Part shown: in pieces, positions 47,415-53,692 of the stretch
Layout: each line of letters starts with the position of its first letter
Position numbering within the stretch: position 1 is the first letter of the stretch
Source of the DNA: Escherichia coli
Lineage (GTDB): Bacteria; Pseudomonadota; Gammaproteobacteria; Enterobacterales; Enterobacteriaceae
Strand: one strand, 5' to 3'
Length of the DNA: 64,000 bases
Assembly (NCBI RefSeq): GCF_003334305.1
Contig: NZ_QOWS01000005.1
Made by a program: the position numbers and the translations under genes
Notes under the pieces: model-generated
Seen by the model: only the letters and a program-made list of their open reading frames with translations
Databases searched by the model: none
What the model was told of the DNA's origin: nothing

Positions 47415-47419
47415 ACCAT

Positions 47420-47460
47420 ACGCACAGAATGTGATGTCAGCACTCTGTGCGTCTGCTTTT
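47420..47460 (+). terminator. Hairpin terminator after eamA
   Basis: Inverted repeat acgcacaga/tctgtgcgt followed by ctgctttt. Confidence 0.5.
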
Positions 47461-48157
47461 ATCGCGGGAAAAAGTACTTTACCTGGAACTCGAAAATATT
47501 GCTGTAAAGTAACGAATAATCCAGCGGAATAGAGTTACTGTCCACAGCCTGGGTCTGAATTTTAAGTATGGGATCCCGTGGGCTGATCCGTAAAATACTG
47601 GCGATTTCTGGGGTAGGAAAAGTAGGGGAGAAAGTTTCAAAGGTGCCAATGATTTTGATCCCGCATTCATTCTCAATATATGAAAATTTGGATTTTTGCA
47701 TATGTGACACGGTTAAATCAGGAAAACGTGCTACTGACATCCACCTTTCTTCTAATTGTGCTGCATTATCCTCAATGAATCGCAGTCTCTTTATGTAATA
47801 AACCTGCTCACCAGTCACTAAATTCAGCTCAGTCGCAATAGTGGGTGAAGCATCCTGCACTTCAAATTTCATAATCTGACTCCCTGCCTCTTTGCCGCTT
47901 TAATGCGCAATTTCACTGAAACTGTTCATGTGATCAATGTGTGCAACAAAATTCTTTTTTTGAATGTATGTTCCTGAACCATGCTTTCTGTGAATAATTC
48001 CTTCGCCTTCCAGCAAGGATAATGCCTTACGCAGGGTATTACGCGAAACATTATAACGAACAGCGAGTTCCGCTTCTGACGGCAACAAATCACCAACATG
48101 CCATGAATTGCCATTGATTTCGGATTTAAGTAAGCGGGCAATCTTTTGAAAAATCAC
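47459..48157 (-). pseudogene. HutC/GntR-family regulator interrupted by one in-frame TAA (HTH part 47900..48157, UTRA part 47459..47872)
   Basis: The two minus-strand ORFs share one frame; the HTH ORF stop TAA at 47900..47902 and 9 sense codons separate them; full frame is 232 codons. Confidence 0.75.
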
Positions 48158-48355
48158 TTTTGCACCTTTTAAGAGCCATTGAAAACAAGGAGTTGAGTCC
48201 TGATTGGTTTATCGTATGGCCGAGTCGTTTAATAATCACCCTGATGTTGAACAACTTTATCACTGTATTACTGTGATCAATGTACCAGGACGTATAGCTA
48301 CTGCGGGATATGATATTTAAACAATGTAATCTGTTATATACCAGTAAGGGAAAAT

Positions 48356-48667
48356 ATGAAAAAAATATTGTTAGTTTGCGCTGCGGGCATGTCAACCAGT
48401 ATGCTGGTTAAACGTATGATTGATCATGCTAACGCTATTTCACTTGAAGTTAATATTTCCGCATTGGCGATTGCAGAGGCTAAAGGGAAAATTAAAAATA
48501 ACGAAGTTGACGTTGTTTTACTTGGCCCGCAAGTTCGCTTTCAGAAACCAGAGATTGAAGCCGTTGCACAGGGGAAAATGCCTGTAGCCGTTATCGAGAT
48601 GAAAGACTACGGCACCATGAACGGACAGGCAGTTCTTGAATTTGCGATGAAACTACTGCAAGAGTAA
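48356..48667 (+). CDS. PTS lactose/cellobiose-family IIB component
   Basis: 103 aa ORF with N-terminal LLVCAAGMSTS phospho-cysteine motif. Confidence 0.8.
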   Translation: MKKILLVCAAGMSTSMLVKRMIDHANAISLEVNISALAIAEAKGKIKNNEVDVVLLGPQVRFQKPEIEAVAQGKMPVAVIEMKDYGTMNGQAVLEFAMKLLQE

Positions 48668-48790
48668 GAATCTAATATTATTAAACTATTACCTGAACTA
48701 ACTTTTCACACATCATAAAATGGATATGGCATACATGCTTTATTGGGATGTATAAATATCCAAAACAACAGGTATAAAAAAATGGGATTA

Positions 48791-50498: not shown

Positions 50499-52172
50499 AT
50501 GAATATAAAGACGCTTAACGTCAGCCTTTTGTCTTTTTCTATTATTACAGCATTGTTTCCATTGAACGCGATGGCAACAAAATTAACCATAGAGCAGCGC
50601 CTTGAATTGCTTGAAAATGAATTGTCGCAAAATAAACAAGAGCTGAAAGCAACACAGAATGAACTGGGAGTATATAAATCCCGACTTTCGACCTTACAAA
50701 AAAGCATCACGGAAAACAAATATAAATCAGCCTCGCTTGCTGAAATATCAGCGACATCTCCCGTCGCTGATAACATCAAAAATGAAAACGGTGAACAGAA
50801 CTCGTTTACCGCAGCGCATACTATAAATGGATCGCAGCAAGTTGCCGTTATTGAAAGTAAAGGCGACAAAACCACTATCGAAAGCGTGACCCTGAAAGAT
50901 ATCAGTAAATATATAAAGGATGATATTGGGTTCAGCTATCAGGGGTACTTCCGCTCAGGCTGGGGTACTGGTAATCACGGCTCACCACAAACTTATGCAG
51001 CGGGTTCTCTGGGACGTTTTGGTAATGAGATGAGCGGTTGGTTTGACCTGACCTTAAATCAGCGTGTTTATAATCAGGACGGTAAAACGGCAAATGCGGT
51101 CGTTACCTATGATGGCAACGTGGGTGAGCAGTATAACGATGCCTGGTTTGGTGACAGTGCCAATGAAAATATCATGCAGTTCAGCGATATTTACCTGACA
51201 ACGCGAGGTTTTTTACCCTTCGCACCAGAGGCAGACTTCTGGGTCGGCAAACATAAACTCCCGCAATATGAGATCCAGATGCTGGACTGGAAAACCTTAA
51301 CCACGGATGTCGCCGCGGGTGTGGGGATTGAAAACTGGGCACTTGGTGTAGGGCTGTTTGATATGTCCTTAAGCCGTGATGATGTCGATGTTTACTCTCG
51401 TGATTTTTCGCGTACCAGCCAGATGAATACCAATTCTGTGGATGTTCGTTATCGCAATATCCCGTTATGGGATGATGCGACATTATCATTAATGGCTAAA
51501 TATTCCGCACCTAATAAAACGGATCAACAACAAGATAACGAAAATGACAACAGTTATTTTGAAATGAAAGATAGCTGGATGCTGACTTCTGTTTTACGGC
51601 AAAACCTGCAACGCGATACGTTTAATGAATTTACGTTACAGGTTGCCAATAATTCCTATGCCAGCAGTTTTGCCAGTTTCTCAGATGCCAGTAATACGAT
51701 GGCGCATGGTCGCTATTACTATGGTGATCATACCAATGGGATCGCCTGGCGTTTAATCTCTCAGGGCGAGATGTATCTTACTGACAATATTATTATGGCT
51801 AACGCGCTTGTCTATTCTCACGGCGAAGATGTTTATAGTTATGAAAGTGGTGCTCATAGTGATTTTGACAGTATTCGCACTGTAATAAGACCGGCCTGGA
51901 TCTGGAATACATGGAATCAGACGGGGCTTGAATTAGGCTGGTTTAAGCAACAGAACAAAACTCAGCAGGGTGTAACACTAAATGAATCGGCTTATAAAAC
52001 GACACTCTGGCATGCATTGAAAGTGGGTGAAAGCATTTTAGGTTCACGACCAGAAATTCGCTTCTATGGAACGTATATCAATATTCTGGATAACGAATTA
52101 TCGAATTTTAAGTTTAATGAGAACAGCAAAGACGAGTTTATGGCCGGCATCCAGGCGGAAGTCTGGTGGTAA
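50499..52172 (+). CDS. Carbohydrate-specific outer membrane porin (LamB/ScrY/BglH-like) with N-terminal coiled-coil
   Basis: 557 aa; signal peptide ending LNAMA; heptad-like [26 protein letters not shown]; aromatic-rich C-terminus ending EVWW. Confidence 0.7.
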
Positions 52173-52196
52173 TCTATTTTAGTTAAGGAGTTGTGT

Positions 52197-53636
52197 ATGT
52201 CAGGATTTAAAAAAGGTTTTTTATGGGGCGGTGCGGTAGCCGCGCATCAGTTGGAAGGTGGCTGGAATGAAGGAGGAAAAGGCATCAGCATCGCTGATGT
52301 GATGACTGCTGGCGCTCACGGGGTGCCGCGTGAAGTGACAGAAGGCGTTATCGACGGGCTTAATTATCCCAATCATGAAGCAATTGATTTTTATCATCGC
52401 TATAAAACAGATATTCAGTTATTTGCCGAGATGGGATTCAAATGCTTTCGAACTTCCATTGCCTGGACACGAATCTTTCCGCAAGGTGACGAACAGGAGC
52501 CGAATGAAGAGGGTTTACAATTTTATGATGATCTGTTCGATGAATGCCTTAAGCAGGGAATGGAACCTGTGGTGACGCTTTCACATTTTGAGATGCCTTA
52601 TCATCTGGTGACAAAATATGGTGGCTGGCGAAACCGTAAACTGATCGACTTTTTTATCCGCTTCGCATCAACGGTCTTCACGCGCTATAAAGAAAAAGTA
52701 AAGTACTGGATGACGTTTAACGAAATCAATAATCAGGTGAATTTCAGCGAAAGCCTGTGTCCATTTACTAATTCCGGTATCTTGTATTCGCCAGAGGAAG
52801 ATATCAATGAGCGCGAACAAATAATGTACCAGGCGGTACATTACGAGTTAGTTGCCAGTGCCCTGGCGGTACAGACTGGAAAATCGATCAATCCTGAATT
52901 TAACATTGGCTGTATGATCGCCATGTGTCCCATCTATCCTCTGACGTGTGCACCCAACGATATGATGATGGCCACGAAAGCAATGCATCGTCGTTACTGG
53001 TTTACTGATGTTCATGCTCGTGGATATTATCCGCAACATATGCTGAATTACTTTGCCAGTAAAGGATTCAACCTCGATATCACACCAGAAGATAACGCGA
53101 TTCTTGCCAGTGGTTGTGTCGACTTTATCGGCTTTAGCTACTACATGTCTTTTACGACACAATTTTCGCCCGATAACCCGCAACTGGATTATGTTGAACC
53201 ACGAGATTTGGTCAGCAACCCTTATATCGATACATCCGAATGGGGATGGCAAATTGATCCGGCAGGGCTACGTTATTCACTCAACTGGTTCTGGGATCAT
53301 TTCCAGTTGCCGCTGTTTATTGTCGAAAATGGATTTGGTGCGGTTGACCAGAGACAAGCTGACGGCACGGTGAACGATCACTATCGCATTGATTACTTTG
53401 CTTCCCATATTCGGGAAATGAAAAAAGCCGTAGTTGAAGATGGTGTTGACTTAATTGGCTACACCCCGTGGGGCTGCATTGACCTGGTTTCTGCCGGAAC
53501 AGGGGAAATGAAAAAGCGCTACGGAATGATTTATGTCGATAAAGACAACGAAGGGAAGGGAACGCTGGAACGGATACGTAAAGCGTCGTTTTACTGGTAT
53601 CGGGATCTCATCGCCAACAATGGCGAAAATATTTGA
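52197..53636 (+). CDS. Glycoside hydrolase family 1 6-phospho-beta-glucosidase
   Basis: 479 aa from the ATG after SD aaggag; GH1 N-terminus [16 protein letters not shown] and ENG nucleophile motif FIVENGFG. Confidence 0.85.
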
Positions 53637-53661
53637 GACTTGAGGAAGATATTACGGAGAT

Positions 53662-53687
53662 GTCAGGCTCTGTGATCAGAGCCTGAC
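53662..53687. terminator. Hairpin between the GH1 gene and marB
   Basis: Inverted repeat gtcaggctctg/cagagcctgac with tgat loop. Confidence 0.55.
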
Positions 53688-53692
53688 AATAA

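Follow-up and report, generated by a model that had tools for sequence, protein, structure and literature searches.

The cryptic β-glucoside operons of Escherichia coli comprise bgc, chb, asc and bgl, as listed in one report (PMC4488073). For the first of these, another report (PMC3585215) describes BgcR as a positive, GntR-type regulator of the five-gene bgc operon, which encodes the phosphotransferase system (PTS) enzymes IIB, IIA and IIC together with the phospho-β-glucosidase BgcA. A six-gene 'cellobiose-specific PTS' set, c1955–c1960 of strain CFT073, has been recorded as present in strains B7A, E110019, E24377A, HS, UTI89 and SMS-3-5 and as absent in K-12 and O157:H7 (PMC2831201). Here we analysed a 64,000-nt stretch (the window) of the E. 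coli contig NZ_QOWS01000005.1 (RefSeq assembly GCF_003334305.1), in which a segment at 47415–53692, hereafter the island, separates eamA from marB. We conclude that this locus is very probably the bgc (β-glucoside/cellobiose) operon, bgcR/bgcEFIHA, of Neelakanta, Sankar and Schnetz 2009 (Appl Environ Microbiol 75:2284), an operon that is already known, named and experimentally characterised, and that the strain carries it with a nonsense codon in the regulator gene.

An initial annotation, made from the sequence alone, had described a 6.3-kb segment with a divergent regulator gene, genes for IIB, IIC and IIA, a porin gene and a gene for a glycoside hydrolase family 1 (GH1) enzyme. All of these elements were found in the positions it had assigned, according to both the open reading frame (ORF) listing and the Prokaryotic Genome Annotation Pipeline (PGAP) annotation of the 100%-identical strain TUM1887. 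Five genes in the order IIB, IIC, IIA, porin and phospho-β-glucosidase occupy 48356–53636, and the divergent gene adjoining them is of the GntR type, with GntR and UTRA domains (inactivated here by the nonsense mutation K86*). These features agree with the described bgc operon, as does the presence of the locus in B2 extraintestinal pathogens (CFT073), in Nissle and in E. albertii NBRC 107761. The same six genes lie between marB and eamA in CFT073 and Nissle. The island is also found, at 99.9% identity, in B7A and E110019, and these two positives, together with the negative K-12, agree with the pattern in PMC2831201. It had also been claimed that eamA and marB are adjacent and convergent in K-12, and in MG1655 the two genes indeed converge with a gap of 30 bp. 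Automatic pipelines give the products generic names only, and the locus therefore looked unannotated or new. The claim of novelty had been made subject to the gene set not being characterised already under a named operon; since it has been, as bgc, that claim falls.

The three PTS proteins belong to the lactose/cellobiose family (TC 4.A.3 in the transporter classification), combining an IIC model match with a separate IIB cysteine and a separate IIA histidine. BgcF scored 335.4 bits against the cut-off of 236 for TIGR00410 (lactose/cellobiose-family IIC), is 37% identical to ChbC and matched PDB 3qnq, a cellobiose-specific IIC component, at 3.8e−57; the context of its start codon, ATGGGATTAATG, is kept in five species. 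BgcE matched NCBIfam TIGR00853 at 1.2e−24 and is 44% identical to K-12 ChbB, with Cys8 aligning with the phosphorylated Cys10 of ChbB, and BgcI matched NF007768 at 1.9e−30 and is 48% identical to K-12 ChbA, with His76 aligning with the phosphorylated His89 of ChbA. Because both proteins fall below the cut-offs of the IIB and IIA equivalog models, BgcE and BgcI are not orthologues of ChbB and ChbA.

In BgcH, a signal peptide and an N-terminal extension precede a LamB-type barrel (Pfam LamB at 2.2e−81 over residues 147–557; Sugarporin_N at 3.9e−07), and the protein is 53% identical to K-12 BglH over 541 aa. With its LamB barrel and N-terminal periplasmic extension it fits the LamB/ScrY/BglH sugar porins (TC 1.B.3), and its scores, under the cut-offs of the maltoporin equivalog models, show that it is not LamB itself. 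A search of solved structures with the BgcH sequence returned no match. BgcA scored 1034 bits against a cut-off of 624 for NF007154 (6-phospho-β-glucosidase) and contains the catalytic motifs TFNE(176) and VE(377)NG as well as KRYG at 440 (K440 and Y442, the phosphate-binding KxY). It is 60% identical to BglA, 50% to BglB and 49% to AscB, and its top PDB matches are all 6-phospho-β-glucosidases, with 3pn8 and 4f79, which we take to be streptococcal, ahead of E. coli BglA (2xhy).

All five structural reading frames, bgcE to bgcA, are intact in the window, and the earlier functional reading, a self-contained route of outer-membrane entry, PTS uptake with phosphorylation, and hydrolysis of β-glucosides, was correct. 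In such a route, BgcH would pass β-glucosides through the outer membrane, and a phosphoryl relay would run from phosphoenolpyruvate (PEP) through enzyme I (EI) and HPr to IIA (BgcI) and IIB (BgcE); the sugar would enter via IIC (BgcF) and be phosphorylated at C6. BgcA would then split the phospho-β-glucoside into glucose-6-phosphate and glucose or an aglycone.

The system had been called complete, which does not hold for this strain, as the gene for its activator has a nonsense codon. In the intact Nissle allele, Pfam places the GntR winged helix-turn-helix (wHTH) at residues 3–64 and UTRA at residues 86–217, and the K86* stop coincides with the start of UTRA, at the boundary of the two domains. 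The nearest solved structures to BgcR are YvoA/NagR and DasR, a likeness that indicates membership of the HutC subfamily. PGAP marks bgcR with an 'internal stop' in the identical strain TUM1887. The gene is thus a pseudogene here, and what it encodes is a wHTH fragment of 85 residues that lacks UTRA, the effector/dimerisation domain. The K86* lineage also has a missense change in codon 138 (T138R, window position 47745) that is absent from Nissle and O26.

The stop is rare. When a 57-nt probe with the stop at its centre was compared with a sample of 5,426 complete E. coli genomes, only nine matched it exactly (H15, A7, A28, TUM1887, DETEC-E601, 41, TUM12355, WL164 and FCI51). A sequencing error was considered as its source and ruled out, the allele being common to nine independent complete genomes. 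One-base mismatches to the probe occurred in 1,763 genomes; the one inspected, O26 RM10386, has AAA at this codon and an intact bgcR of 232 codons. Over the whole island the window and O26 differ at five positions only, indicating that the K86* mutation is recent. As BgcR is the reported activator, the stop in its gene would be expected to cost the operon its inducibility while leaving the structural genes intact, and the strain and its clade of nine genomes have most likely lost BgcR-dependent activation. Expression of the operon in a K86* strain would then require a promoter-up mutation.

The divergent bgcR–bgcE regulatory region of the window is of the B1 type and differs from the B2 type (Nissle) at 11 of 198 positions (5.6%), two of them beside a conserved CRP-like site; it is identical to that of O26. 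Its sole strongly conserved block, ACTGTGAYCAATGTA, is invariant in the B1 and B2 types of E. coli, E. albertii, Citrobacter and S. diarizonae, and has at its core the CRP-like site TGTGATCAATGTACCA, whose match to the CRP consensus is modest (12 of 22 positions). With TATGAT taken as the −10 hexamer, this site would be centred at −41.5, a class II geometry, and transcription would start near 48321.

The proposed survey of the distribution of the locus was carried out, with the island called present when at least 80% of its length was found. It is present in 2,494 genomes of the sample (46%), with partial remnants in about 70 and the K-12-type empty junction in 2,481. The copies, of which there is a median of one per genome (Megablast), form two allele groups, one at least 99% identical to the window (1,620 genomes) and one at about 97.5% (946 genomes, including Nissle), and most island-bearing genomes have the B1-type allele. 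Of the 2,573 island matches, five come from records given as plasmids. A Citrobacter species and Salmonella diarizonae have the same block of six genes elsewhere in their genomes, and rearranged versions are found in Kluyvera, Raoultella, Enterobacter, Cedecea, Buttiauxella and Erwinia.

In E. albertii the gene order is bgcR–bgcEFIHA–marB–marA–marR, with the cluster abutting marB as it does in E. coli. Between the window and Nissle, nucleotide identity is 96.2–98.4% for the bgc genes and 96.8–98.9% for the flanking core genes, and the rate of synonymous substitution (dS) in the island is comparable to that in the flanks. Ratios of nonsynonymous to synonymous substitution (dN/dS) of the bgc genes are 0.014–0.093 against Nissle and 0.02–0.08 against E. 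albertii, as low as those of eamA, marA and marR. The bgc genes are under strong purifying selection despite the 'cryptic' label. Together, the position in E. albertii, a divergence matching that of the flanks and the low dN/dS indicate an old, vertically inherited and selected locus that is absent from K-12-type genomes. The initial term 'insert' is misleading for a locus of this kind. In other genomes, damaged copies of the island were seen with IS1, IS3 or IS600 (insertion sequences, IS) in or near the porin gene or other genes; one genome lacks bgcA, and another is deleted from within eamA to the last 139 nt of bgcA. Such copies show sporadic ongoing decay beside the overall purifying selection.

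The island is AT-richer than its flanks, as had been noted: at 42.5% GC, compared with 49.4% in the remaining window, it is the GC-poorest 6.3-kb stretch within the 64 kb, and GC content at third codon positions (GC3) is 0.39–0.46 in its genes against 0.54–0.59 in flanking genes. From this composition a foreign origin is plausible, but it would have to lie before the split of E. coli and E. albertii. The earlier statement that integrase, transposase and tRNA genes are lacking also held. A PHROG search found no phage or mobility proteins among the six island products, no tRNA gene was found in the island and no direct or inverted repeats were found bordering it, so that the hallmarks of a mobile island (integrase or transposase, tRNA target, flanking direct repeats) were not seen. 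No Rfam family was detected across the island at E ≤ 1. When the window, Nissle, O26 and CFT073 are compared with K-12, the left edge of the polymorphism falls within the last codons of eamA, and the C-terminus of EamA tracks the state of the island, reading ...KVRG* in island-bearing strains and ...KVGS* in K-12; with the edge inside these codons, the EamA C-terminus is rewritten by the indel. A deletion between short GATGTCAG repeats near both ends of the island was considered as the source of the K-12 junction and rejected, the predicted product differing from the K-12 sequence.

Several points weigh against the identification with bgc and against what we draw from it. The original study reportedly maps bgc, names its porin BgcH and describes a CRP-dependent promoter, a promoter mutation called bgc* and an occurrence in E. 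albertii; literature searches on the map position returned secondary mentions only. The published work reportedly used a B2 strain, and the B1-type regulatory region here differs from that type, as described above; its regulation may not be identical to the published one. That K86* abolishes activation is a step we infer. The published locus is that of strain i484, and the name bgc was assigned here through the descriptions given in citing papers. PMC3585215 names the IIA protein BgcF and the IIC protein BgcI, the reverse of the gene order used here, and the names bgcF and bgcI are uncertain. Lastly, among public records for the exact island proteins none bears a Bgc name, all having generic names, and this would also suit a distinct, uncharacterised β-glycoside system that merely resembles bgc, the true bgc lying elsewhere in B2 genomes. 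Such a system is highly improbable given the point-by-point match to the described operon (five genes, separate IIB, IIC and IIA, phospho-β-glucosidase, GntR-type regulator), the occurrence of the island in B2 uropathogens and E. albertii, and the median of one copy per genome.

Identity with bgc leaves the age of the locus and the effect of the stop to be weighed. The initial framing, a recent horizontal acquisition between eamA and marB, is very unlikely, because the cluster adjoins marB in E. albertii too, the divergence between B1 and B2 types equals that of flanking core genes with comparable dS, and integrase, tRNA, IS elements and terminal repeats are all missing; these observations stand against the low GC (0.425) and GC3, the nearest solved homologues of BgcA (3pn8 and 4f79, not E. 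coli BglA), the six-gene block elsewhere in Citrobacter and S. diarizonae genomes and the absence of the island from 46% of E. coli genomes, all of which would fit a recent arrival. As for the stop, the operon could still be expressible if the B1 promoter were independent of BgcR or if separate wHTH and UTRA fragments were functional: the regulatory region differs from that of the B2 type, for which dependence on BgcR was shown, the UTRA part might be translated from an ATG at bgcR codon 96, which has GGGAG upstream, and the structural genes are intact. We consider this unlikely. HutC-family proteins dimerise via UTRA, and an isolated wHTH usually binds DNA poorly. Moreover, O26 has the identical intergenic region, and its bgcR is intact and strongly constrained by purifying selection (dN/dS 0.019), which implies that BgcR is needed in B1 backgrounds too. 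It is likewise quite doubtful that the B1-type allele as a whole (about 1,770 genomes) is regulated differently from the B2 type, for example by being less cryptic or less BgcR-dependent; if it were, the K86* clade would offer a natural experiment on whether BgcR can be dispensed with.

With the locus read as an old bgc operon whose activator gene is broken in this strain, the significance is mostly one of annotation, a published cryptic operon standing behind generic labels. Three things are added: bgc is far more widespread among complete genomes than 'prevalent in B2' suggests, it is strongly maintained by purifying selection although called cryptic, and the strain is one of a small clade in which the activator gene is knocked out, the rare bgcR stop being the sole unusual point of the locus.

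Table 1. Positions of the bgc locus and its sequence features in the 64,000-nt window.
Feature	Positions	Strand	Details
eamA	46515-47414	+	left flank gene
Left edge of presence/absence polymorphism	47405-47414	+	final two codons and stop of eamA; window, Nissle, O26 and CFT073 compared with K-12
Stem-loop between convergent eamA and bgcR	47420-47452		inverted repeat; 66-nt region folds at -20.5 kcal/mol
bgcR (GntR-family gene, pseudogene)	47459-48157	-	ORF listing, PGAP
bgcR nonsense codon TAA	47900-47902	-	codon 86, K86*; AAA (Lys86) in Nissle, O26 and CFT073-type alleles
Divergent bgcR-bgcE regulatory region	48158-48355		five-species alignment
CRP-like site	48272-48287	+	core of most conserved intergenic block; CRP binding putative
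Candidate -10 hexamer TATGAT	48309-48314	+	proposed from spacing
bgcE, PTS IIB	48356-48667	+	103 aa
bgcF, PTS IIC	48782-50104	+	440 aa
bgcI, PTS IIA	50132-50443	+	103 aa
Stem-loop CCTCCAG...CTGGAGG, bgcI-bgcH spacer	50447-50474	+	11-bp stem
bgcH, carbohydrate porin	50499-52172	+	557 aa
bgcA, GH1 6-phospho-β-glucosidase	52197-53636	+	479 aa
Stem-loop between convergent bgcA and marB	53661-53688		71-nt region folds at -22.6 kcal/mol; same hairpin in E. albertii
marB	53693-53911	-	right flank gene

Three of the features in Table 1 are stem-loops in spacers. Those between the convergent pairs eamA–bgcR and bgcA–marB are each likely to act as bidirectional terminators, judging by their folding. The hairpin in the bgcI–bgcH spacer has counterparts, with differing loops, at the corresponding position of Nissle, E. 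albertii, Citrobacter and S. diarizonae; it is possibly a partial terminator or an element of mRNA processing or stability, and might determine how strongly the PTS is expressed relative to the porin and hydrolase. The bgcE–bgcF spacer (48668–48781, 114 nt) contains a hairpin, GGATATGGCATACAT...ATGTATAAATATCC, and in the other four species this spacer has different sequences with inverted repeats, as judged by eye.

Elsewhere in the window, a Qin-like defective prophage remnant extends from about 27300 to 36650, with phage tail pseudogenes, an Ail/Lom protein, a tail-fibre gene, pinQ and ydfK; it adjoins a 5'-truncated ydfJ and lies upstream of the island. A second stretch of low GC (0.36–0.43) was observed at 42750–44500, in the ydeI–dgcZ region upstream of mgtS.

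Among the systems with which the locus can be compared, gmu of B. subtilis (regulator GmuR) and bgu of S. pneumoniae (regulator BguR) share with bgc a lactose/cellobiose-family PTS, a GH1 enzyme and a GntR/HutC regulator, but they are Gram-positive systems and have no porin. According to PMC3585215, BguR is highly similar to BgcR, as are the Bgu proteins to the Bgc proteins; the paper calls BguR a repressor (in its title) and BgcR an activator. The aryl-β-glucoside operon bgl of K-12 (bglGFBH) resembles bgc in its GH1 phospho-β-glucosidase and LamB-family porin, and is likewise AT-rich and cryptic; it differs in having the glucose-family fused IIBCA permease BglF and the antiterminator BglG, where bgc has a split lactose/cellobiose-family PTS and a DNA-binding regulator. 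The K-12 operon chb (chbBCARFG), for N,N'-diacetylchitobiose and cellobiose, has separate IIB, IIC and IIA of the same PTS family as bgc and is also cryptic (for cellobiose), whereas its hydrolase, ChbF, is a GH4 enzyme, its regulator, ChbR, is of the AraC type, and it includes a deacetylase and no porin, in contrast to the GH1 enzyme, GntR/HutC regulator and dedicated porin of bgc. The published bgc operon itself has the same gene content, gene order and divergent GntR-type regulator as the window, which is 97.4% identical to B2 bgc alleles at the nucleotide level (2.6% diverged overall, 5.6% in the regulatory region) and is set apart from them by its B1-type allele and the rare K86* in bgcR.

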